Assembly: GCA_016931225.1 (NCBI GenBank)
Contig: JAFGFE010000015.1
Coordinates: 2,858 to 66,857, forward strand
Reading direction: 5' to 3'
DNA length: 64,000 bases
Origin: Candidatus Zymogenaceae bacterium
Lineage (GTDB): Bacteria > Desulfobacterota > Zymogenia > Zymogenales > Zymogenaceae
Part shown: positions 4,867 to 29,997 of the stretch, in pieces
Layout of the letters: the number at the start of each line of letters is the position of its first letter
How positions within the stretch are numbered: the stretch's first letter is position 1
Position numbers and translations under genes: made by a program
The notes under the pieces: generated by a model
Databases searched by the model: none
What the model was told of the DNA's origin: nothing
The model's input: the letters and a program-made list of their open reading frames with translations, nothing else

Positions 4867-5420
4867 TGCGGGTCAATGTTACGTTTAGACATATGGAGAA
4901 TACCGAGGCGCTTCGGCAGTATGCCGAGGAAAAGCTTCAAAGAATCAAGAAATATCTCTATACCCCCGCCGATATTTCGGTCGTGTTGTCTGTTGAAAAA
5001 CATCGGCACATTGCAGAGGTGATAATAAACGCGGAAAAGATGACCATTAAGGGCAAGGAAGCCACAGACGATATGTATTCGGCCATCGATATTGTTATTG
5101 AAAAAATCGAGAAACAGGCGAAGAAACATAAGGACAAGATGGTCGGCCATAACAAGGCGAATGTCAAAGATCGCCCGCTGGGGATGAATCCGTCTGAATC
5201 CGATTTCTCCGGCGATGTGTCTAACGATGCAACAATTAATATCGTTACACAGACCATCGACGGAAAACCGATGACGGCGGAAGAGGCGGCGATGCAGTTG
5301 GATGATTCCGGAAGGGAGTTTCTCGTCTTTATCAACGCCGAGTCGAAAGATGTCAACGTTGTATATAAGCGCAGGGATGGAGACTACGGCCTTATTATTC
5401 CCTCTGAAGAGCGAAGCTGA
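4866..5420 (+). CDS. hpf: ribosome hibernation promoting factor (long form)
   Basis: Start 'MRVNVTFRHME...' is the canonical HPF/RaiA N-terminus. 184 aa with a C-terminal dimerisation domain. TAATG overlap with the rpoN stop. Confidence 0.9.
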   Translation: MRVNVTFRHMENTEALRQYAEEKLQRIKKYLYTPADISVVLSVEKHRHIAEVIINAEKMTIKGKEATDDMYSAIDIVIEKIEKQAKKHKDKMVGHNKANVKDRPLGMNPSESDFSGDVSNDATINIVTQTIDGKPMTAEEAAMQLDDSGREFLVFINAESKDVNVVYKRRDGDYGLIIPSEERS

Positions 5421-5440
5421 TCATACGAAAAAGGTGATGG

Positions 5441-5899
5441 ATGAAGATTCTGGACATTATCAACGAAGATCTCATCAAACCGGATCTTTCGGCGACGAAC
5501 AAGGAAGAGGCTCTGGCGGAATTGGCGAGTCTGATCGCCACGAAGGAGGGCCTTGACGAGAATAGAATCGTGGGGGTGCTCAGAGAACGGGAAAAGCTGG
5601 GAAGCACGGGTATCGGAGACGGTATCGCCATTCCTCACGGGAAGCTCAAGGGACTCAAGAAGCTTGTCGCATCATTTGGAAGATCAACAAAGGGCATTGA
5701 CTTTCAATCCATTGACGGAAGGCCCACGCATTTATTTTTCCTGTTGATGGCTCCCGAAAACACCGCCGGTGTGCATTTGAAGGCGCTTGCCCGCATTTCC
5801 AGGCTGCTCAAGGATAAAAAATTTCGGGAATCACTCCTGGTTGCCGGCACCACCGAGGAGATATTTCAGGCGTTGCAAGACCAGGATGAAAAATTATAA
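5441..5899 (+). CDS. ptsN: PTS IIA-like nitrogen regulatory protein (EIIA-Ntr)
   Basis: 152 aa. Phosphorylation-site region 'GIGDGIAIPHGK'. Canonical position after rpoN-hpf. Confidence 0.85.
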   Translation: MKILDIINEDLIKPDLSATNKEEALAELASLIATKEGLDENRIVGVLREREKLGSTGIGDGIAIPHGKLKGLKKLVASFGRSTKGIDFQSIDGRPTHLFFLLMAPENTAGVHLKALARISRLLKDKKFRESLLVAGTTEEIFQALQDQDEKL

Positions 5900-5923
5900 T
5901 AAAGCAGTAATACAGACCGGCCC

Positions 5924-6460
5924 GTGAAAATCACGCGCAGAACAATTCACGGCACTCTCCTGTATATATTCAATCGAGGCGTTCTGATTATCGGGGAGAG
6001 CGGTACCGGTAAAAGCCGCATTGCCAGGGATATTCTCGGACATATGGACTTTTTCGGGCAATGCGGCTTGGTTCGTTCCGGGAGGCTTGTCGCGGACGAT
6101 ATTATAGAACTGGAGATGACATCGGAGGGCCTCGTTGGTGCGGCGCCACACACCCTCTTCGGGCTTTTGGAAATCTCGGGTGTGGGGATCATCGACGTAC
6201 GACGGGTGTTCGGCCCCTCTCTGGTTCGGCGATCATCTTCCATCGACATCATTGTACGTCTGGAGGAATCGCCGGATGTATTGACGGCCGCTCCAAAAAT
6301 GACGGTATCAATCAACTCTCACGGAGAGGAAGATATCCCGGTCATTTATATCGCTGCAGGGGTGTCCGGTGATGCGGTCGCGGCGGCGGTTATCGAACAT
6401 ATCATGATCGAGGCGGGCGTCGAGGCGCCGGTCCTCGATGAACTTGTAAAGCAGAGATGA
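5924..6460 (+). CDS. hprK: HPr kinase/phosphorylase, short form (kinase domain only)
   Basis: GTG start. Walker A 'GESGTGKS'. 178 aa, so it lacks the N-terminal domain found in Firmicutes HprK. Confidence 0.8.
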   Translation: MKITRRTIHGTLLYIFNRGVLIIGESGTGKSRIARDILGHMDFFGQCGLVRSGRLVADDIIELEMTSEGLVGAAPHTLFGLLEISGVGIIDVRRVFGPSLVRRSSSIDIIVRLEESPDVLTAAPKMTVSINSHGEEDIPVIYIAAGVSGDAVAAAVIEHIMIEAGVEAPVLDELVKQR

Positions 6461-7332
6461 CATTCAGTGCACCAAGTATACATCTCTTTATTGTGACCGG
6501 GCTTTCGGGATCGGGAAAAAGCACCGTTATCAACGCCCTGGAGGATATCGGTTTTTTCTGCATCGATAATATGCCGGTCGTACTCCTGCCGACGTTTGTG
6601 GATCTGCTCCATCAATCAAGCTGGGATATCAACAAAGTCGCCATTGTGATGGACGTGAGGGAGCGGAGGTTTTTGTCTGAGTTCCCGGACGTTTTTGAAG
6701 AACTTACGGAAAAGGGACAGCCATACCATATCATCTTTCTCGAAGCCACAGATGATATCCTGATTCGCCGGTACAAGGAAACAAGACGCTCCCATCCCAT
6801 GGCGGAAAATCCCCGGGAGGGCATCGCCCGGGAGCGAAAAGCCCTGGGCGAGCTGAAAGGCCAGGCGCATCTGATCATCGATACGTCTGATTTCACACCG
6901 CACCAGCTCAGGGACCGCATCTTCGATTATTTCAAGGAGCTCGTCCCGAAGCGTAAGCTGAGGGTGACGGTCATGTCGTTCGGGTATCGCCATGGGACCC
7001 CGTCGGAAGCGGACGTGATGATGGACGTTCGGTTTTTACCGAATCCGTTCTTCGTGGAGACGCTGAAAAAGAAGACGGGAATGGACGGGCAGGTAAAGAA
7101 ATTCGTCCTGGGAAAACAGGAGACGAGCGAATTTCTTCAGTTGTTCAAGAACCTTCTTTCGTACCTGATCCCCCGGTACGTCGAGGAGGGGAGGTCCTAT
7201 CTGACCGTGGCGTTGGGATGTACCGGAGGCATACACAGGTCGGTGGTTCTGGCGGGTGAGGTGGCTCGGTGGCTCGGAGATTCGGAAGACTGTATCATAA
7301 ACGTGGTACACAGGGATATTAACAAAAAATAA
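6457..7332 (+). CDS. rapZ: RNase adapter protein RapZ (YhbJ, P-loop NTPase)
   Basis: 'FIVTGLSGSGKSTVINALEDIGFFCIDNMP' is canonical RapZ. 291 aa. 4-bp overlap with hprK. Confidence 0.9.
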   Translation: MTFSAPSIHLFIVTGLSGSGKSTVINALEDIGFFCIDNMPVVLLPTFVDLLHQSSWDINKVAIVMDVRERRFLSEFPDVFEELTEKGQPYHIIFLEATDDILIRRYKETRRSHPMAENPREGIARERKALGELKGQAHLIIDTSDFTPHQLRDRIFDYFKELVPKRKLRVTVMSFGYRHGTPSEADVMMDVRFLPNPFFVETLKKKTGMDGQVKKFVLGKQETSEFLQLFKNLLSYLIPRYVEEGRSYLTVALGCTGGIHRSVVLAGEVARWLGDSEDCIINVVHRDINKK

Positions 7333-7336
7333 AAAA

Positions 7337-7750
7337 ATGAGTGACTGTATGGTGGGTATAGTGATCGTTTCCCATTTAAAGCTTGCAGAAGAAATGTTGA
7401 AAACGGCGGAGCTGATCGTCGGTCCCATAGAGAAGGCGAAAGCGCTTTCCCTTGATCCGAAGAAGGACGTCGACGTGATGCGAAATGAAATAAAAAAGGC
7501 CATAAAGGAAGTCCAGACGGGTGAGGGAGTCATCGTGCTGACGGACATGTTCGGCGGAACACCATCCAATCTTGCCCTGACATTTCTTGATGCGGGTATT
7601 GAAGTAATCTCGGGTTTCAATCTTCCGATGCTGATAAAGATCGCGACACACCGGGAAGGGTTGGAAGTAAAGGAGGTCGCGCGCATCGCCAAAACATACG
7701 GCATCAGTAATATCAACGTGGCCACTGAATTTTTGAGCACGAAGAAATAG
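7337..7750 (+). CDS. PTS mannose-family EIIA component
   Basis: 137 aa. 'VGIVIVSHLKLAEE' with the active His in 'VSH', typical of EIIA-Man. Confidence 0.85.
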   Translation: MSDCMVGIVIVSHLKLAEEMLKTAELIVGPIEKAKALSLDPKKDVDVMRNEIKKAIKEVQTGEGVIVLTDMFGGTPSNLALTFLDAGIEVISGFNLPMLIKIATHREGLEVKEVARIAKTYGISNINVATEFLSTKK

Positions 7751-21632: not shown

Positions 21633-22169
21633 ATGTGCAAAGCATTGAGATTCGGCATACTGGTGTCGTGTGTCTTTTTCCTGATGCTGGGGACCGCCGT
21701 CGCCCAGGAGATGGGGGACATGTCTTTTTCACTCATAAGCTCAGCATTCGATGACGGCCAGAGAATACCGAGCAAATACACTTGCAGCGGTATGGACGTG
21801 ACACCGCCCCTTGAGTGGTCTGGGGTGCCGGAGGGGTGTGTAACCCTTGCCATTATCATGGACGATCTGGACGCACCCGGCGGCGTCTGGGTGCACTGGG
21901 TCATCTGGAACATCGATCCGGCCCTGGGGGGCCTGGACGAGGCACTGGATACGGAGGCGATCGGCGCCGTGCTGGGGAAAAACTCCTGGGGTAAGGCCGC
22001 ATACGGAGGCCCATGTCCGCCCAGCGGCGTTCATCGATACAACTTCAAGATATACGCCCTGTCCGACTATCCCGACGTTGATCCCGGAGCGTCCAAGAGC
22101 AAGCTGAAACGAGCGATCAAGGACATCACTCTGGCCGAATATACACTGATGGGCACCTACAGCAAGTAG
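21633..22169 (+). CDS. YbhB/YbcL family Raf-kinase-inhibitor-like (PEBP) protein, secreted
   Basis: Signal peptide present. PEBP signature 'GGPCPPSGVHRYNFKIYAL'. GGGAGG ribosome-binding site and a TATAGTATAAA -10-like element upstream. Confidence 0.85.
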   Translation: MCKALRFGILVSCVFFLMLGTAVAQEMGDMSFSLISSAFDDGQRIPSKYTCSGMDVTPPLEWSGVPEGCVTLAIIMDDLDAPGGVWVHWVIWNIDPALGGLDEALDTEAIGAVLGKNSWGKAAYGGPCPPSGVHRYNFKIYALSDYPDVDPGASKSKLKRAIKDITLAEYTLMGTYSK

Positions 22170-22273: not shown

Positions 22274-23770
22274 ATGATCGATCGTCCCCGCACGGGTATC
22301 ATGTCCGATACGTATGCCGGAATAAGGACCGACCTGATTTTATTCGTGCTCGGATTCTTCCTCACCGTCTTCATCGGCAACCGATTCGGTCCCGGGGGGC
22401 TTGGTTTCTTCTCCATGGCCCTGACCATGTACGTCCTGGGGGTGTTGGCATGCTCCTCCGGCGTGACGCATGTGTTTGTCCCGAAACTCACCGGCATCCC
22501 GAAGAATGAGCAAAGGCGGCTCGTCACGACAGCGCTCCTGTTTGTCGTGGTATTCGGCCTAGCGGCGACCGTCTTCGGTTTCATGATATCGAGGCGGATC
22601 TCCCAGGCGTTTGATATCTACGATCTGTGGCGGGTGGTGTGTCTGGTATCCCTTGCGTTTGTTCCCGGTGTGTTCAACGAGACGATATGCAACTTCCTTG
22701 CGGTTCTGGACGGGCACAAGACGGCGAATCGATACCGGATGAAAAAGCGTATCATCTTCCTGTGTGTCGCCGTCGTCATGAGTGTGACCAAAAACATCTA
22801 CCTGGTGCTCACCGCGTTTTTCATATCGGATCTGATTCTGACCATCACCCTCATACGCCGCGAGCGGGCTTGGTTCTTTCCGCTGGATTTCAGCGGATTT
22901 TCGGAAACGGCGCCGGGACTTCTTCTCTCTTCGGTACGAAGAAGCTTTTCCGGAAGCGCCGGTGAGGTGAACGTCCGTATCGATGTGCTTATCATCGGCT
23001 ACTTCATGTCGGCCTCATCGGTGGGCGTCTATGCGGTTGCGATACTGGTGACTCGTCTGATCCTTCTTCCCTGGGAGGTGATCCGAGAGGTGATGCTGAC
23101 GCGGCCGAAAGACACGGGCGATACAGGGATCGGCGTGGATGCGAAAAGAGGCATCCGGGGATACTTCGCATACGGGACGGCGGCGATGCTGGTGATCGCC
23201 GTGTGTACGGCGATCCTGTATAAAAAGATTATCGGTGTGATATTTCCATCCACCCACGACTATTTGGCGTCCACGGGGGCGTTCCTGTTTCTTTTACCGG
23301 GGGTCGTACTGTACGGCGCAACGACGATATATGAGGGAATACTTGTGAGGACGGGAAAGTCTGAAACGGTCGGCATTATCTCGATCCAGACACTTCTGAT
23401 CAATTTTATTCTCAGTGTATTGATGGTCCACGCCTTCGGGATATACGGAGCGGCGCTTGCGGGCACGCTCTCATTTTTCTGGTATTACCTCGCCATGACC
23501 GAAACGCTGAATGATGTGAACATGCCGGTCGATCGATGGACGACGATCCTCTATGGGATCGTGGCCGCCGGTATCGCCGTGATTCTGGTAGATCTTCTGG
23601 GAGAATCGTTTCTTGTGGCTGTGCTTGCGGGAGTGACGACGCTTCTCATGCTCGTCTTCGTCGGATATCTTGATCTCTCCGTGGAAATCGGAAACGTCAC
23701 ACCGATGAATGTGATCGAGAAGGTCTGGGAGTCGGCGAGAAAGACAAGAGACACATCGCGACTTCACTGA
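22274..23770 (+). CDS. oligosaccharide/polysaccharide flippase family (MOP superfamily, Wzx-like) membrane protein
   Basis: ~498 aa with 12-14 predicted TM helices and the usual Wzx-type arrangement. The true start may be internal (MSDTY...). Confidence 0.55.
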   Translation: MIDRPRTGIMSDTYAGIRTDLILFVLGFFLTVFIGNRFGPGGLGFFSMALTMYVLGVLACSSGVTHVFVPKLTGIPKNEQRRLVTTALLFVVVFGLAATVFGFMISRRISQAFDIYDLWRVVCLVSLAFVPGVFNETICNFLAVLDGHKTANRYRMKKRIIFLCVAVVMSVTKNIYLVLTAFFISDLILTITLIRRERAWFFPLDFSGFSETAPGLLLSSVRRSFSGSAGEVNVRIDVLIIGYFMSASSVGVYAVAILVTRLILLPWEVIREVMLTRPKDTGDTGIGVDAKRGIRGYFAYGTAAMLVIAVCTAILYKKIIGVIFPSTHDYLASTGAFLFLLPGVVLYGATTIYEGILVRTGKSETVGIISIQTLLINFILSVLMVHAFGIYGAALAGTLSFFWYYLAMTETLNDVNMPVDRWTTILYGIVAAGIAVILVDLLGESFLVAVLAGVTTLLMLVFVGYLDLSVEIGNVTPMNVIEKVWESARKTRDTSRLH

Positions 23771-23832: not shown

Positions 23833-23873
23833 CCGCCTCACGGGCGCATGCCCGTGAGGCGGAATGCTTTTAT
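23833..23873. terminator. bidirectional rho-independent terminator between the flippase (+) and hisB (-)
   Basis: Perfect 13-bp inverted repeat CCGCCTCACGGGC-GCAT-GCCCGTGAGGCGG at 23833-23862, followed by CTTTTATT on the + strand and CCTTTTGTT on the - strand. Confidence 0.7.
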
Positions 23874-24481
23874 TCGGTGAGCGTTCCCTTGGTGGAGAGA
23901 ACGCCGGAAAAACGGGGATCGAGACTCACCGCATTGGACAGCGCCCGGGCGAACGCCTTGAAACAGGCCTCGGCGATGTGATGGGCGTTGGCGCCGTGTT
24001 CCAGGACGATATGCACCGTGGCCCTGGCATGGTTTGCGAAGGCCCTGAAGAACTCCTCGAAAAGCTCGACGTCGAACTCCCCAACCTTGTTGGACGAAAA
24101 CGATACATCGTATACCAGGTAGGGACGCCCGGAGAGGTCCACCGCGGCGGTGGCCAGGGACTCATCCATGGGGACCCGTGCGCTGCCGTATCTCGCGATG
24201 CCGGATTTATCACTTAATGCCTTCAGAACCGCCTCGCCGAGACAGATGCCGATATCCTCCACGGTATGGTGGAGGTCCACATGATGATCGCCTTCAGCGG
24301 CAACGGTCAGATTGAACATGCCGTGCCGGGCGAGCAGCTCCAGCATGTGGTTGAGAAATCCCGCGGGTCCGGAAACGGAATAATCGCCCGTGCCGTCCAG
24401 ATCGATGGAGAGACGGATATTCGTCTCCGCAGTGGTCCTGGTGATCTCGGCCTTTCTCTTCATTGCTTCCTCATCTCTCAT
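23870..24481 (-). CDS. hisB: imidazoleglycerol-phosphate dehydratase
   Basis: '[19 protein letters not shown]' and the two His-rich metal motifs '[12 protein letters not shown]' and '[16 protein letters not shown]'. 203 aa. Confidence 0.9.
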
Positions 24482-24536: not shown

Positions 24537-26597
24537 CTATCTCCCGTTCTCGGCGATGTCCGTGTAGATTTCCTTCAGGGTCTCATATGAGTGCTTCGGA
24601 ATGCGATCTTTGGAGACGACTCCCTTCATGTTGTAATAGGGGACGACGTTCCCCGGAAACCAGGGGCAGTAGAAGTCGGCGAATATCCAGGGAGAAACAC
24701 CCACGATGTACTCTCGCTCACGAAACGCATTGAGGTACGTGCGGATGACATATTCCTGATATTCTTCCGAGTATGTTTTCCCCGGGCTGACGCGATCGGC
24801 CACGTAGCTCCCGTCCTCGTCCGTTCGCCCGGGGGCGGCGCTGGCGCCGAACTCGGAGAGAAACACCAGTCGGTCCGGGTGCTGTTCGTGATAGGTGTCT
24901 AGCTTCATTCCTGCGTCTTTTGCCGTGCCGTAATACCAGCCGTAATAGCTGTTGACCGACGCGATGTCGAGATAGTCGGCCGACATGCGCTTGGTATCGA
25001 AGAAGGGAATGTCATAGGTGACTTCAGCCTTCGTTACCGGGCGCGAGTCGTCGAAGGCCCTGATGACATCCCTCAGGTGGCCGTAAAAACGGCCGCCGGA
25101 TGTATACAGCGAGTAGCTCTCGTTGGAGACGAACCAGAGAACGACCGCCGGGTTGTTGATGTCCCGCTCCACCATTTCGATGAGCTGGCGACGGGTTGAG
25201 ACGACCAGGGATTCTGAATGCAACTGCTTCATCCCGAAGGTCGAGGCGGGGAACCGAAAGAGCTCCCTGCCGGTCCCGAACCAGGTGGTCCAGCCAAGGC
25301 CGACCTGGTAATGGGGGATTTCCTCGGAAACCATGATTCCCCTGTCACGACAGGCCCTGATTTCCCGGATGTCGTGGGGGTAATGGGACATCCTGATGAA
25401 ATTCGCACCCATCTCCTCTATCAGGTCGAGATCCCTGTCGATAACGGCCTCGTTCTGGGTGGCGCCAAGATACGGGTCGTCTTCGTGTTTCGATATGCCC
25501 AACAGCACCGTCTCCTCACCGTTTATCAGGAGCGCGTCATTTGTGATCTCGATGGTGCGAAAACCGGTCACCACCGACACCCGGTCATCAGACATACGGT
25601 CCTGGAGGTGGAGCTTCACGGTGTAGGTTGCGGGATCCTTCGTTGACCAGAGCCGCGGTGCGGGGATCGAGGCGCCGGCGGGATACAGCCGATATTCCCC
25701 TTCGGCAATCGGCGTATCGATGTCTATGGGATAGATCATTCCATCCGGACCGACGACCTCTCCCTCGATCGTACATTCGGTGCCGCCGGCAAGACGATGC
25801 ACGACGATAGTCATGTCCAAAGTGCCGCCGGTTTCCTCCGGGACGGCCCGCGCCACGACCTTGCACAGGTACTGTCCGGGCAGCTTCTCCAGGTACACAT
25901 CACGGTAGATGCCGCCGTATTCCCCCCAGCCTCCCTGGGTGTGGTACCTGTACTGTTTCGGGGGCAGGGTGTCGAATCTGATGCGATTGTCCGCCCGGAC
26001 GATCAGGGTGTTCGTCTCGCCGGGCCTGATGAAGTCGGTGACGTTGAAGTAAAACGGCGTGTAGCCCCCGTCCCGGTGCCCCAGGTGGTTGCCGTTGAGC
26101 CACACATCCGAGGTCAGGAGCACGCCCCGAAAGCAGAGCCGGGTGATCGGGTTGGGAGGTGACGACCCATCCGCGGTAAAGGTGAGCATGTACCAGGTCA
26201 CGCCGGTATGATGGCGATAGGGACCCTCGAATGCGTTGTACGTTGAGGGAACGGTGTAGTCCTCCCAGGAGTCGTCCGCATCCCGTATGAGGAACCATTC
26301 CTCATCCAGTCCCACCTCGTCGGGATCAAACCGCATCTTCCAGGAGCCGGAGAGATCCTGGATCGGGCGGTTGGTGTCCTCGAAGACCGTGGGGTAGGGG
26401 AGGCCGTATTCCACCAGGATGTTCGTATCCCCCACGGTGACGATGGTGAAGTCTCCGTCGCTGTCGGTATCCGGGAAGGTGTAGTCGACCCGGGGATATA
26501 CCCAGGTCAGATACAGCCATGCACAGACGACGATGACGATCGCCGCGAGAATCACAGAAAAGATTCCGCATACGATTTTCTTCACGATCGATTTCAT
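24537..26597 (-). CDS. glycoside hydrolase family 2 protein with N-terminal membrane anchor
   Basis: N-terminal TM helix, then a GH2 sugar-binding domain ('VTWYMLTF', 'VWLNGNHLGHRDGGYTPFYF'). TIM-barrel motifs 'NFIRMSHYPHD', acid/base 'WFVSNES', nucleophile 'FLSEFGA'. Confidence 0.75.
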   Translation of the reverse strand: MKSIVKKIVCGIFSVILAAIVIVVCAWLYLTWVYPRVDYTFPDTDSDGDFTIVTVGDTNILVEYGLPYPTVFEDTNRPIQDLSGSWKMRFDPDEVGLDEEWFLIRDADDSWEDYTVPSTYNAFEGPYRHHTGVTWYMLTFTADGSSPPNPITRLCFRGVLLTSDVWLNGNHLGHRDGGYTPFYFNVTDFIRPGETNTLIVRADNRIRFDTLPPKQYRYHTQGGWGEYGGIYRDVYLEKLPGQYLCKVVARAVPEETGGTLDMTIVVHRLAGGTECTIEGEVVGPDGMIYPIDIDTPIAEGEYRLYPAGASIPAPRLWSTKDPATYTVKLHLQDRMSDDRVSVVTGFRTIEITNDALLINGEETVLLGISKHEDDPYLGATQNEAVIDRDLDLIEEMGANFIRMSHYPHDIREIRACRDRGIMVSEEIPHYQVGLGWTTWFGTGRELFRFPASTFGMKQLHSESLVVSTRRQLIEMVERDINNPAVVLWFVSNESYSLYTSGGRFYGHLRDVIRAFDDSRPVTKAEVTYDIPFFDTKRMSADYLDIASVNSYYGWYYGTAKDAGMKLDTYHEQHPDRLVFLSEFGASAAPGRTDEDGSYVADRVSPGKTYSEEYQEYVIRTYLNAFREREYIVGVSPWIFADFYCPWFPGNVVPYYNMKGVVSKDRIPKHSYETLKEIYTDIAENGR

Positions 26598-26630
26598 GGT
26601 ATCCTCGCTTGAGGGGCTACAGGATTCGGT

Positions 26631-28640
26631 CTATCTTCCGTTTGTCTTGATGTCGTGATACATCTGTGTGAGAACATCATAGGCGGCCTTCGGTTCACGC
26701 CCCGAGGTCATCACTCCCGAAGAGTGTAAGAACGGTGCCGAGTCGCCGGGATACAGACTATCTGCGAAGACGGCGGGACATACGCCGGCGATGTAATTTT
26801 TTGAACGGGCGATCTCCATATATTCCTCGATGAGCATCGCCTGGTCTTCTTCCGAGTACGTGCCGTCTGCATCAATACAGTCGAGTCCGGCCGGGACACA
26901 GAAGTCTGAAAGAAATAGGAGCCTGTCGGGATATCGCCTGTGAATACGGTCGAGGTACAGTCCCAGGTCTTCGGGGCCGCCGGCGTGGAGGTCGGAGGAA
27001 GAATCGACGGCGATCAGATCCATGGAGGGCGCCGCTCGTTTTTCGGCGTCCAGAAGGCGAATGTCATAGGTGTATTCGAACGTGCAAACCGGGCGGGTGG
27101 AATCGAACGATCGTATCACATCACGCATCCAGCCGTGGAAACGCCCCCCCTCATCGAAGAGGGTGTACGACTCAGAGCCCGCAATCCATATGATCACCGC
27201 CGGATTGTTGATGTCCCGCTCCACCATCTCGATGAGCATGCGCTGGGCCAGGGACATGAGGTGTGGGTCGTTAAGCTGGCGCATCCCGAAAGTCCGCACC
27301 GGCAGCTCGAACAGGGTCCCCTTTTTATTGTACCAGTCCACCCAGCCCATGCCGATGTTGTTGTACGGAATCTCCTCGGAGACCATGATTCCCAGGTCAC
27401 GGCACGCCCTGATTTCACGGACGTCGTGGGAGGAGTGGGCCATGCGAATGAAATTTGCGTTCATATCCTGTATCAGACCGAGGTCTTTGGCGATGTTATC
27501 AGTCATCGGCTCCGATCCCGAATCCACGACGTCCTCGTATCGAGAGACGCCCCTGATGAAGGTGTTGATGTCGTTGATGTAGACGCCCGGGTCGGTTCCG
27601 TAGCCCACGATCCGAACGGTGCGAAATCCGGTTTTCGTCTCCAGTGTTTCCACTCGACTCTTCGTCTTCAGGGTGAGCATGAGACGATAGAGCCGCGGGT
27701 GGTTCGGCGACCAGGTCTTCGGATTATCCACCTCGCACTTCAATGTGTGCAGTTCGAATTCATCGGACGATTCAAAGATGTACGATCCCAGGTCTATTTC
27801 CTCACCGTCAGGGGAGATGAGCGCTCCCGAAAGGATGTAGGGGCCGGTGAGATCGTGATTGTGGATGACCACCGAGACCGACACATCGCCTTTGTTTTTG
27901 GAGAGGGACATATCCGCCACTGCCTTACAGATGTAATGTCTCGGAATGCTTTCGAGAACGACGTCTCGATGAATGCCCCCGACACATTCCCGTTCGGGGC
28001 TTTGACGTTCCCATGTTTTTACCGGCAGTGTGTCGTAATCGGGACGATTGTCCGACCGAACAATGAGGATATTTTTATTGCGCTCAAGGTGGTCCGAGAC
28101 GTCGAAATAGAAGGGGGTGTCTCCCCCCCGGTGACCGCCCAGGTATGTGCCGTTGAGCCAGACGTCCGCGCACATGTGCACGCCGTCAAACCCGAGGCGG
28201 GTGAAGGTCTCGGTATCTGTGTTGAGATCGGATGAAAAATCGAGAAAATACCAGGTAACGCCTCGATAGTTCGAAAAAGAACCGTCGGTGCCGACGTACG
28301 ATGATGGAACGACGATGTCCATCCAGTCATCGCCGGGCTCGGTCGTGTGCTGCCACCCGTCGTCCATCCCCGTATCGTTCGGGTCCGTTTTCATCTTCCA
28401 GGTTCCGCCCAGGTTTTGAGCGGGGTAGGTCGATGCCTCAAAATCGGTTGGATAGGGGAGATTGTGATATACCAGGAGATTGATTCCGTCCACGGATTCA
28501 ATGTGATAGTCGTTCTCCGTGCTTGTGAACGGAACCGTATAATCCGCCTTTGGATATACCTTGAACAGGTGGACCAAGAAACCTGCGATGATCACCAGTG
28601 CCGCAATAACACTGACACAGAGCAGTTTTATAATCTTCAT
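26631..28640 (-). CDS. glycoside hydrolase family 2 paralog with N-terminal membrane anchor (nucleophile position Asp)
   Basis: Collinear with the upstream GH2 ('NFIRMAHSSHD', 'WIAGSES'). At the nucleophile position it reads 'FLSDFCV', Asp instead of Glu. 33-bp gap to its paralog. Confidence 0.7.
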   Translation of the reverse strand: MKIIKLLCVSVIAALVIIAGFLVHLFKVYPKADYTVPFTSTENDYHIESVDGINLLVYHNLPYPTDFEASTYPAQNLGGTWKMKTDPNDTGMDDGWQHTTEPGDDWMDIVVPSSYVGTDGSFSNYRGVTWYFLDFSSDLNTDTETFTRLGFDGVHMCADVWLNGTYLGGHRGGDTPFYFDVSDHLERNKNILIVRSDNRPDYDTLPVKTWERQSPERECVGGIHRDVVLESIPRHYICKAVADMSLSKNKGDVSVSVVIHNHDLTGPYILSGALISPDGEEIDLGSYIFESSDEFELHTLKCEVDNPKTWSPNHPRLYRLMLTLKTKSRVETLETKTGFRTVRIVGYGTDPGVYINDINTFIRGVSRYEDVVDSGSEPMTDNIAKDLGLIQDMNANFIRMAHSSHDVREIRACRDLGIMVSEEIPYNNIGMGWVDWYNKKGTLFELPVRTFGMRQLNDPHLMSLAQRMLIEMVERDINNPAVIIWIAGSESYTLFDEGGRFHGWMRDVIRSFDSTRPVCTFEYTYDIRLLDAEKRAAPSMDLIAVDSSSDLHAGGPEDLGLYLDRIHRRYPDRLLFLSDFCVPAGLDCIDADGTYSEEDQAMLIEEYMEIARSKNYIAGVCPAVFADSLYPGDSAPFLHSSGVMTSGREPKAAYDVLTQMYHDIKTNGR

Positions 28641-28722: not shown

Positions 28723-29254
28723 ATGTCAAGGGTAAAAGCCTTTCAGTCGTTGTGGAACACTCCTGTGATGCGTTTCCCTTTTGACTTTATCAAAAAATTT
28801 TGTTATAAAAAAAAAAGCATCATCAAAGAGAGAACGAAGCCGAATTCTCTGTTCCCTGTGATGCTGACTATCCTGGATGATATGATGAGGAAAAACGGTC
28901 CTCATCCCATTCTTAACATATCCGAAATGTCGACATTCAGGGATTTATATCCCCCGAATAACAAAAAACAGAAGCAAAAGTCTTCGGGCATCAGCCCCCT
29001 GATAAGTGGATTGATCGACCTTATCGGCGGAGACTGTGCTAAAAGTCCTACTGAGGAAGGCTGGTCGGCAGGAGGTCGGGCTCGCACGTAAGGATGGACC
29101 GGAACATGTGGGCATATTCGCCCGTAAGCTTGAAAAAGGTGGCACTGGGTCGGGGACATATTGCCCATGGATTCTCGGCGTACTGACATTATCCGGTGGA
29201 GGAAATCGACTGCCGGGACGCCGCTACAAAAAAGTGTGTTTTTCATATAGATAG
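28723..29254 (+). pseudogene. frameshifted, C-terminally degraded paralog of the downstream V4R-domain gene
   Basis: Frame 1 (28723-29091) matches the N-terminus of the 29356 gene ('LTILDDMMRKNGPHPILNISEMSTFRD' vs 'VTIEDVMGKNGLNAILNVSSMTKFRD'). The match continues in a +1 frame ('AGRQEVGLARKDGPEHVGIFARKLEK' vs 'AGRKGFRNVVEKSPELFGLVGIELEK'). The Cys-rich C-terminus is lost. Confidence 0.45.
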
Positions 29255-29355: not shown

Positions 29356-29997
29356 GTGAGAACTACTATGCTTGAAAAACAAAACATTCCCAACTCGCTT
29401 CTGTATATTGCGCTGGTGACGATTGAGGACGTTATGGGGAAAAACGGACTCAATGCGATTCTGAATGTCAGCTCGATGACAAAATTTCGTGATAACATCC
29501 CCCCGAACGACGCGGAACAAGTATACCCGGCAACGGATTTTTCATTCCTCGTGAAAGGATTGATTGAAGTTATAGGAGAAAAGGGCGCCCGGGCGATCAT
29601 GACCAATGCCGGACGCAAGGGATTTCGAAACGTTGTTGAAAAGAGCCCGGAGCTGTTCGGCCTGGTGGGGATCGAACTTGAGAAGATGGCCGCGGACAGG
29701 GAGCGTATCTCGACATTGCTTAATGCTATTACATACGAAACAAATCAAATATTCGGAGAGGGGCATCAGACCTTCGAGGAAGTCGACGGTTCATTTATCG
29801 TCAGCATACATCGATGCAGCTGGTGCCACAGCATAGAGAACTCAAAAACCCCTATCTGTTACGGTGAGGTGGGATTTGACGACGAGGCGGTGTTCTGGGC
29901 CACGAAAAAAAGGTACAAGGTGACGGAGACCGCCTGTCGGGCAATGGGGGACCCGGCATGTGTATTTGAGATCAAGGAAAATCAGGGTGACGACTGA
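29356..29997 (+). CDS. V4R (vinyl-4-reductase-like) domain protein, probable small-molecule sensor
   Basis: 213 aa. The C-terminal Cys pattern 'HRCSWCHS...PICYGEVGFDD...ETACRAMGDPACVFEI' matches the V4R domain signature. Confidence 0.55.
   Translation: MRTTMLEKQNIPNSLLYIALVTIEDVMGKNGLNAILNVSSMTKFRDNIPPNDAEQVYPATDFSFLVKGLIEVIGEKGARAIMTNAGRKGFRNVVEKSPELFGLVGIELEKMAADRERISTLLNAITYETNQIFGEGHQTFEEVDGSFIVSIHRCSWCHSIENSKTPICYGEVGFDDEAVFWATKKRYKVTETACRAMGDPACVFEIKENQGDD

Follow-up and report, generated by a model that had tools for sequence, protein, structure and literature searches.

The stretch of DNA examined here comprises 64,000 nucleotides of contig JAFGFE010000015.1 (GCA_016931225.1) from a Candidatus Zymogenaceae bacterium, and is referred to in its full length as the window. 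On its minus strand lie two adjacent genes for proteins of glycoside hydrolase family 2 (GH2), which we call PAR1 and PAR2. PAR1 (24537..26597; MBN1881804.1, JW885_06485) is an intact open reading frame (ORF) of 686 amino acids (aa), encoding a predicted membrane-anchored, beta-glucuronidase-like GH2 enzyme. PAR2 (26631..28640; MBN1881805.1, JW885_06490) has an ORF of 669 aa and encodes a paralogue with the GH2 fold that appears catalytically degenerate, a candidate pseudo-glycosidase. The spacer between the PAR2 stop codon and the PAR1 start codon (26598..26630, minus strand) is 33 nucleotides (nt) long and contains a GAGGA Shine-Dalgarno sequence. The lengths and spacing given for the two genes in the initial annotation were confirmed, and all four motifs that it had pointed out are present: VSNES and FLSEFGA in PAR1, AGSES and FLSDFCV in PAR2. 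Both proteins are labelled 'hypothetical' at NCBI, and relatives elsewhere carry the label 'beta-glucuronidase'. The 90%-identity protein cluster that contains PAR1 is represented by a 30-aa fragment, and for this reason homology searches show no 100% match although MBN1881804.1 is present.

The Pfam domains Glyco_hydro_2_N, Glyco_hydro_2 and Glyco_hydro_2_C (PF02837, PF00703, PF02836) were detected in both proteins; in PAR1 the middle domain scores just below its threshold (22.4 bits, cut-off 23 bits) and the other two score above theirs. PAR1 and PAR2 have the domain layout of GH2 enzymes, with a sugar-binding N-domain, an Ig-like domain and a (beta/alpha)8 barrel, and their full-length sequences share 41% identity. 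AlphaFold2 models based on the family alignment reached a predicted local distance difference test score (pLDDT) of 94 for PAR1 and of 90.6 for PAR2 (predicted template modelling score 0.93). When these models were compared to known structures with Foldseek, the top 50 matches for both were nearly all GH2 beta-glucuronidases (GUS). The best matches of PAR1 were all GUS (E about 1e-51, template modelling (TM) scores 0.74/0.88), and those of PAR2 were beta-glucuronidases as well, including human GUS (E 1.6e-45, TM 0.75/0.82).

Catalytic positions were mapped using phmmer alignments to solved GUS structures, a BLASTP alignment of PAR1 with E. coli UidA (25% identity, E 4e-52) and a UidA-anchored alignment of 81 family sequences. 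The nucleophile glutamate of GH2 enzymes (E504 in E. coli GUS, EcGUS; E537 in LacZ) acts in a retaining double displacement (PMC12243196). Bacterial GUS proteins are recognized by the residues N412, E413, Y468, E504, N566, K568 and G569, in combination with an identity of 25% or more to a reference GUS, and the N-x-K motif within this set has a role in recognition of the uronate carboxylate (PMC10162664). The equivalents of E413 and E504 are E493 and E582 in PAR1 and E490 and D579 in PAR2; the phmmer and UidA-anchored alignments agree on all four, and BLASTP on the two of PAR1. The catalytic positions in the initial annotation, including an aspartate in place of the nucleophile in the second paralogue, are thus borne out by the alignments and by the codons (GAG versus GAC).

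In PAR1 all seven residues are present. These are N492 and the acid/base E493 (25119..25124, minus strand; N412-E413 in EcGUS), Y551, the nucleophile E582 (GAG; 24852..24854, minus strand), and N656, K658 and G659 in the uronate-carboxylate motif N-x-K-G (N656-M-K658-G659; 24621..24632, minus strand), with a borderline identity to UidA. The equivalents of H330, Y472 and W549 (EcGUS numbering) are kept too, and the PAR1 clade retains 125 of the 129 family-conserved columns. PAR1 resembles GH2 GUS enzymes such as E. coli UidA and the gut 'Loop 1' GUS (3K46, 4JKM, 5Z18, 6U7J) in its three-domain fold, both catalytic glutamates, the Tyr468 and Trp549 equivalents, the N-x-K-G motif and a long insert where EcGUS has its active-site loop. 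Judged by these residues, PAR1 is predicted to be a retaining GH2 glycosidase of the beta-glucuronidase type, with the full residue set for a hexuronidase.

PAR2 has lost five of the seven residues (S489, S548, D579, H639 and S641 stand in their place), leaving the equivalents of E413 and G569. In EcGUS numbering the changes are N412 to S, Y468 to S, E504 to D, N566 to H and K568 to S; further losses are W549 to A, Y472 to H and H296 to Y. The acid/base glutamate is retained, but the asparagine preceding it is a serine in all orthologues (S489-E490; 27171..27176, minus strand), and a degenerate remnant is left of the N-x-K-G motif (H639-S-S641-G642; 26715..26726, minus strand). At the nucleophile position PAR2 has D579 (GAC; 26904..26906, minus strand). 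In the family alignment this column is a glutamate in 75 of the 76 other family members, the remaining lost sites are near-invariant in those members, and no substitute conserved glutamate for the nucleophile was found in PAR2. Judged by this alignment, the aspartate at the nucleophile position of PAR2 is not there by chance.

Four orthologues of PAR2 were found in public data (P0002 to P0005, 66-76% identity). The nucleophile position is an aspartate in P0004 (GAT) and a glycine in P0002 (GGC), P0003 (GGT) and P0005, so the aspartate variant, whose conservation across relatives had been proposed as a check, is not conserved. Because the site toggles between aspartate and glycine within the PAR2 clade, there appears to be no selection for a carboxylate at this position. 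Out of 128 columns conserved in at least 90% of the family, the PAR2 clade keeps 82, loses 40 (20 of which fall within residues 521-669) and in 6 has a different residue that does not vary within the clade (E171R, L362I, Y403S, F446L, N489S and N546D). With the nucleophile and most of the -1 sugar subsite gone, we infer that PAR2 cannot work as a retaining glycosidase. It retains the fold and lacks key catalytic residues, which is what defines a pseudoenzyme, and the suggestion in the initial annotation that the second paralogue is a pseudo-enzyme holds, given the five lost residues in a maintained fold and ORF.

A man-made counterpart of the natural change in PAR2 exists in the Aspergillus oryzae glucuronidase. 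The phmmer alignments to PDB entries 5c70 and 5c71 show that both catalytic glutamates are replaced by aspartate in 5c71, the substrate-complex entry. Catalytic mutants of this glutamate-to-aspartate kind are essentially inactive.

Relatives, history and selection

The class Candidatus Zymogenia (Desulfobacterota) consists of rare, anaerobic, fermentative bacteria, some members of which are hypersaline (bioRxiv 10.1101/2021.03.22.436540). In the window and at two related loci (L001 and L004) a PAR2-like gene is followed by a PAR1-like gene, with a spacer of 33 nt in the window and of 35-36 nt in the relatives, and another locus (L005) opens with the final codons of a PAR2-like gene, a trace of the same tandem. 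In two independent Logan assemblies (L002 and L003) a PAR2-like gene (5303-7339, glycine variant) is followed directly by hisB, and no PAR1 is found at the locus. The L002/L003 genome (SRR28370465, SRR28370467) is close to that of L005 (1-2167 compared), with 97% identity in hisB and 94% in the flippase-like gene. The residual spacer in L002 resembles the spacer between PAR1 and hisB, as would be expected if the 3' ends of PAR1 and the PAR2-like gene, which are similar, had recombined and PAR1 had been deleted; this is probably how PAR1 was lost in L002 and L003. Across the class, hisB has a conserved GH2 gene directly upstream; in more distant Zymogenia-type metagenome-assembled genomes (MAGs), among them L009 and L010 (the latter being the type MAG JAFGIX), the position is occupied by a single active GH2.

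In a bootstrapped neighbour-joining tree, PAR2 grouped with this single-copy active GH2 in 94.5% of replicates (90% when only residues up to 523 were used), and with PAR1 in 0%. As PAR2 never joins PAR1, a recent tandem duplication was rejected as the source of the pair, and sub-functionalisation after a simple tandem duplication, as put forward in the initial annotation, does not fit this grouping. PAR2 rather appears to be the resident GH2 upstream of hisB, whose chemistry would have been lost in a lineage where the intact, more divergent PAR1 is present as well. For PAR1, an origin as an older paralogue and one as a xenologue are both conceivable.

A scan of genome contigs with the family profile was saturated by generic soluble GUS-like GH2 proteins and gave five family loci (L014-L018), none belonging to the PAR2 clade. 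Scanning metagenome contigs with a PAR2-clade profile returned the known L004 and one new partial contig (L097), which added no data on the nucleophile site, and in the search of cluster representatives the PAR2 clade amounted to one 50% cluster, with no distant PAR2-like proteins found.

The strength of selection was estimated from the ratio of nonsynonymous to synonymous substitution rates (dN/dS) by the Nei-Gojobori method (NG86). For PAR2, dN/dS is 0.13-0.23 at a dS of 0.6-1.7 (six orthologue pairs), compared to 0.08-0.14 for PAR1 and 0.06-0.16 for hisB. The values for two neighbouring genes are 0.21-0.26 for the flippase-like gene (0.39 in a single near-identical pair, dS 0.09) and about 0.05-0.06 for V4R-b. 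Within the proteins, dN/dS in the C-terminal half of the barrel (PAR2 residues 521-669) is 0.27 for PAR2 versus 0.08 for PAR1, and in the Ig-like domain 0.14 versus 0.24; over PAR2 residues 1-30 it is 0.18. For samples of this size the difference is suggestive of a shifted pattern of constraint between the two proteins. The ORF of PAR2 is intact in every lineage sampled (4-5), and every PAR2 orthologue shares the substitutions that would inactivate it (S489, D546 and S403, along with loss of the tryptophan and the lysine). These shared changes suggest that the chemistry of PAR2 was lost before the common ancestor of the orthologues and that the ORF has been preserved since. PAR2 is therefore best read as a pseudo-glycosidase maintained by purifying selection, and not as a decaying gene.

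Membrane anchor and wider family

Both proteins start with a single N-terminal hydrophobic span, as the initial annotation had noted. In PAR1 it covers residues 8-34 (26496..26576, minus strand), a predicted signal-anchor helix with 27 uncharged residues that AlphaFold2 models as one helix over residues 2-32. In PAR2 it covers residues 3-26 (28563..28634, minus strand), a predicted membrane helix with 24 uncharged residues and one modelled helix over residues 2-27. The length of at least about 20 residues expected of a type II signal anchor is found in both proteins, and the bias for positive charges on the N-terminal side is clear for PAR1. The flanking charges of PAR1 (+3 on the N-terminal side, -4 on the C-terminal side) predict an orientation with the N-terminus inside and the C-terminus outside, and thus a periplasmic catalytic domain. 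An extracytoplasmic catalytic domain is plausible for PAR1, and the case for PAR2 is weak.

It appears unlikely that the N-terminal helices are instead cleaved Sec signal peptides, which would make both proteins ordinary soluble periplasmic GH2 proteins, an alternative that concerns their topology only. PAR1 and PAR2 do have a positive N-terminus followed by a hydrophobic stretch, and small residues that could serve as -3/-1 positions occur inside it (V-C-A at 23-25 in PAR1, I-A-G at 18-20 in PAR2). Yet the uncharged spans of 24-27 residues are about twice as long as a typical signal-peptide core, and each forms one continuous modelled helix, in which no helix breaker or polar c-region precedes the possible cleavage sites. 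Moreover, the helix is followed by a near-invariant motif, L-F-x-V-Y-P, that is conserved across phyla. The helices are better read as uncleaved signal anchors. Anchoring as a lipoprotein was rejected, as there is no lipobox: a valine or leucine precedes the cysteine, and the cysteine is not conserved in the family.

The same anchor is found in a family of about 100 proteins of approximately 680 aa, from MAGs and genomes, in which the N-terminus holds one uncharged span of 19-33 residues (median 23.5). The hosts include Desulfobacterota, Spirochaetota/Leptospirales, Fibrobacteria (Fibrobacterota), Planctomycetota, Candidatus Moduliflexus and Oceanispirochaeta. All members have an extension between the helix and the GH2 N-domain, at about residues 36-80 of PAR1, which has no counterpart in soluble GUS. 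A second near-invariant motif, G-L-P-Y-P-T, lies in a family-specific beta-hairpin according to the models. In addition to the membrane helix, this extension of around 45 residues with its G-L-P-Y-P-T motif sets PAR1 apart from the GH2 GUS enzymes that it otherwise resembles. The spirochaete members P0015, P0016, P0020, P0025, P0027, P0034 and P0036 lack positive charges on the N-terminal side of the helix and are net positive on its C-terminal side. Topology may differ between family members, some of which may face the cytoplasm.

Almost all family members retain a complete set of catalytic residues together with the N-x-K-G motif. A member from Spirochaetota (L095 8001-15316) adjoins genes for an MFS_2 transporter, UxaC and UxaE, neighbours that point to hexuronate uptake and catabolism. 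Other members have different surroundings, with a sulfatase, TetR, DUF5054 and MFS_2 in Oceanispirochaeta and a GT4 glycosyltransferase in Moduliflexus. Together, the N-x-K motif and the MFS_2/UxaC/UxaE neighbours give indirect support for a uronide specificity of the family; sequence cannot discriminate between glucuronic acid and galacturonic acid as the substrate.

PAR2 is not the only degenerate member. In a second lineage (P0046, P0050, P0155 and P0156) the nucleophile is replaced by glutamine, valine or glycine, and the tyrosine and the N-x-K motif are lost. No GH2 neighbour was found within approximately 4 kb upstream and 8 kb downstream of P0046 (L008 4186-6186). An independent second degenerate lineage hints that a dead GH2 may be a recurrent solution in this family.

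A proposed role for PAR2

Taken together, we consider it likely that the locus encodes one working GUS-type GH2 enzyme and one dead, selectively maintained, membrane-anchored relative with a non-catalytic role. In this proposal PAR1 would use E493 as acid/base and E582 as nucleophile, with N656 and K658 as the predicted contacts for a hexuronide's C6 carboxylate, and would be tethered to the cytoplasmic membrane by one uncleaved N-terminal helix, most likely with its catalytic domain in the periplasm. PAR2 would match PAR1 in fold and type of anchor, with the -1 subsite and the nucleophile dismantled. The globular parts of both proteins would be located outside the cytoplasmic membrane, and the two genes would be co-transcribed. 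The most likely job for PAR2 would be that of a partner subunit of an oligomeric PAR1 enzyme, or of a ligand-binding or scaffolding module. Solved GUS enzymes are oligomers.

Several observations weigh against this proposal or narrow it. PAR1 lacks the equivalents of D163 and R562, is only 25% identical to EcGUS, and scores 250 bits against the beta-glucuronidase equivalog model NF007538 (PRK10150), for which the cut-off is 544 bits; PAR2 scores 139 bits. With an identity this low, these two residues missing and a score far below the cut-off, a glucuronide can only tentatively be taken as the substrate of PAR1. Neither protein is a UidA equivalog, and both fall into a membrane-anchored subfamily of their own that is uncharacterised. 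PAR2 is held to be inactive because catalytic and -1 subsite residues are missing, that is, by its residues only. Its charge bias around the helix is weak, and that of the spirochaete family members is reversed. The presence of PAR2 without PAR1 at the locus in L002 and L003 argues against an obligate complex of the two, unless PAR1 resides elsewhere in that genome, and indicates that any role of PAR2 is not strictly dependent on PAR1. The tree is distance-based (neighbour-joining only), the dN/dS values come from a simple method and a small sample of 3-4 metagenomic sequences, and the preprint on Candidatus Zymogenia does not mention uronate use (bioRxiv 10.1101/2021.03.22.436540).

More specific versions of this role can be held only tentatively. 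PAR2 might be the first GH2 'prozyme', which forms a mixed oligomer with PAR1 and controls how active it is or how substrate reaches it on the periplasmic side of the membrane, or the first GH2 receptor, which senses a uronide-type ligand through its remodelled pocket (E490, D546, S489 and S403); we regard this as possible but doubtful.

Similar residues are central to an alternative in which PAR2 has become a new enzyme or receptor, with a remodelled pocket that contains the clade-invariant E490, S489, D546 and S403 and usually H402. Three of the six columns switched throughout the clade are located in the pocket (N489S, N546D and Y403S), Glu490 is never lost, and PAR2 persists without PAR1 in L002. 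Nonetheless, invariance among four to five sequences carries little weight, the pocket loops are both the least confident part of the model (pLDDT <50 at residues 549-551) and the fastest evolving (dN/dS 0.27 over residues 521-669), and the context suggests no candidate ligand or reaction. Such a new function is unlikely on this evidence.

It is quite improbable that PAR2 is merely redundant and heading for loss, its intactness being a matter of time. It is more distant from the other family members than PAR1 is (1.20 versus 0.94), its dN/dS is about 1.5-2 times that of PAR1, the adjacent V4R-a is already a pseudogene, and the clade is tiny. The inactivation, however, is old, being common to all orthologues, and the ORFs have nevertheless stayed intact with low dN/dS at a dS of up to 1.7. 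In addition, it was the active PAR1 and not PAR2 that was deleted in L002, and the AlphaFold2 model of PAR2 is confident.

That PAR2 is still a glycosidase, with weak or retuned activity or altered specificity from an aspartate nucleophile as the initial annotation had considered, is highly improbable: the invariant Glu490, the carboxylate in the window and P0004 and the retained fold speak for it, but the position is a glycine in three of the five sequences (the window and the four orthologues), the asparagine of N-E, the N-x-K motif and the equivalents of Tyr468, Trp549, Tyr472 and His296 are gone, and 31% of the family-conserved columns are lost.

In the preferred reading, an active PAR1 accompanied by a dead but maintained PAR2, the pair can be compared to several known systems. 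Among solved structures, the best sequence matches of PAR2 are Fusicatenibacter saccharivorans 6NCY/6NCZ and AqGalA 7VQM (E 7e-33 and 1e-31). These GH2 beta-galacturonidases and hybrid hexuronidases are uronide-specific and, with approximately 600 aa, similar to the family described here; unlike PAR2, they are soluble and catalytically complete. LacLM of lactobacilli and EbgAC of E. coli are encoded by two adjacent GH2-related genes whose products cooperate, the small subunit being a completing fragment. In contrast, PAR1 and PAR2 are both full-length three-domain GH2 proteins, and it is the active site of PAR2 that is lost.

Other pseudo-glycosidases include the GH18 chitinase-like lectins, the GH1-like Klotho and the SLC3 heavy chains 4F2hc and rBAT, which are type II membrane proteins whose GH13-like ectodomain is inactive. 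PAR2 is similar to the latter two in having a single N-terminal anchor and, by prediction, an inactive ectodomain. The pseudo-polygalacturonases of family GH28 in beetles are a further case (PMC6549527). Like all of these, PAR2 appears to retain the fold, to have lost catalytic residues and to have a non-catalytic role; it differs from them in GH family and kingdom.

Activators that derive from dead paralogues are described for trypanosomatids, namely the prozyme of S-adenosylmethionine decarboxylase and the deoxyhypusine synthase paralogue (PMC5201418, PMC3663545). The likeness is that a dead PAR2 would be kept by selection alongside an active enzyme, in a family with an oligomeric parent that would ease formation of a mixed oligomer. 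The differences are that an interaction of PAR2 with PAR1, or an activation of PAR1 by it, is hypothetical, that the two have a bacterial, membrane-anchored glycosidase fold, and that L002 and L003 keep the dead copy at the locus without the active one.

The locus reveals a subfamily of membrane-tethered GUS-like enzymes that extends over several phyla and is uncharacterised and, within it, a clear dead member that appears evolutionarily maintained. Literature searches for a bacterial GH2 pseudoenzyme, a membrane-anchored GH2 or GUS, or the PAR1/PAR2 subfamily returned nothing specific. If PAR2 is indeed a regulatory subunit or binding module, it may be the first bacterial GH2 pseudoenzyme to be described, and it would be a warning that not every GH2 gene tallied in a metagenome survey stands for an activity. 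In practical terms the finding has limited reach, as the host is a rare uncultured fermenter and nothing ties the pair to a known pathway.

Neighbouring genes

Downstream of PAR1 lies hisB, the gene for imidazoleglycerol-phosphate dehydratase (23870..24481, minus strand; Pfam IGPD), which is probably co-transcribed with PAR1. In the gap between hisB and a flippase-like gene there is a GC-rich hairpin of 13 perfectly paired bp, bordered by T-rich sequence (23833..23862), likely a two-way terminator. A terminator scan identified none between PAR2, PAR1 and hisB, this hairpin being the first, and PAR2, PAR1 and hisB are probably one transcription unit that ends at the hairpin. A promoter scan found no sigma-70-like site upstream of PAR2, with site counts equal to those expected from shuffled sequence, which makes the scan uninformative. 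The flippase-like membrane protein gene (22274..23770, plus strand; weak Polysacc_synt_3 match, Pfam E 1.8e-7) is convergent to hisB and syntenic in relatives, and belongs to a transcription unit separate from the PAR pair, beyond hisB and the strong hairpin.

On the other side, V4R-a (28723..29249, plus strand) is divergent from PAR2 and decayed. Tblastn with the intact 207-aa orthologue from L002 finds homology in three frames (about 28834-29046, 29042-29224 and 29190-29249), with the middle of the protein deleted; a 122-aa ORF at this position has no Pfam match, and the gene is intact in relatives. The next gene, V4R-b (29356..29997, plus strand), encodes an intact V4R-domain protein of 213 aa that is 89% identical to its L002 orthologue. 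The flanks described in the initial annotation, a Wzx-like flippase and duplicated V4R genes, were found in part: the genes are present, but hisB intervenes before the flippase, which is convergent, and only one V4R gene is intact. A role for the V4R pair as regulators of the GH2 genes found no support, as V4R-a is a pseudogene and no V4R gene is located beside the GH2 gene of Zymogenus saltonus (L010).

The approximately 40 genes of the window identified with Pfam are for housekeeping and envelope maintenance. They comprise rpoN, hpf, hprK, rapZ, mannose-family phosphotransferase system genes, ptsI, metK, ahcY, pgsA, an SLT transglycosylase gene, nadB, a PEBP-family gene, the flippase-like gene, hisB, PAR1, PAR2, the V4R genes, GDPD, tlyA, dxs, ispA, two M23 peptidase genes and xseA. 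Unlike the E. coli UidA locus, this housekeeping neighbourhood provides PAR1 with no uidB- or uidC-type partners. No glycosyltransferases or export machinery were found among these genes, the flippase is set apart by hisB and the hairpin, one V4R gene is a pseudogene, and where the surroundings of family members elsewhere are informative they concern hexuronate uptake and catabolism; the processing of a surface glycan or exopolysaccharide, at which the initial annotation had hinted, was therefore rejected as the context of the pair.

The PEBP-family gene (21633-22169, plus strand) encodes a protein with a signal-peptide-like N-terminus, is syntenic, and is duplicated in Zymogenus saltonus (L010 12159-13353). 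In relatives a flavin-reductase gene is located beside it, which is absent from that position in the window. Antisense ORFs of 431 aa (26940-28235, plus strand) and 121 aa (25797-26162, plus strand) lie inside PAR2 and PAR1, respectively, and were taken as by-products of the composition of the coding strand.

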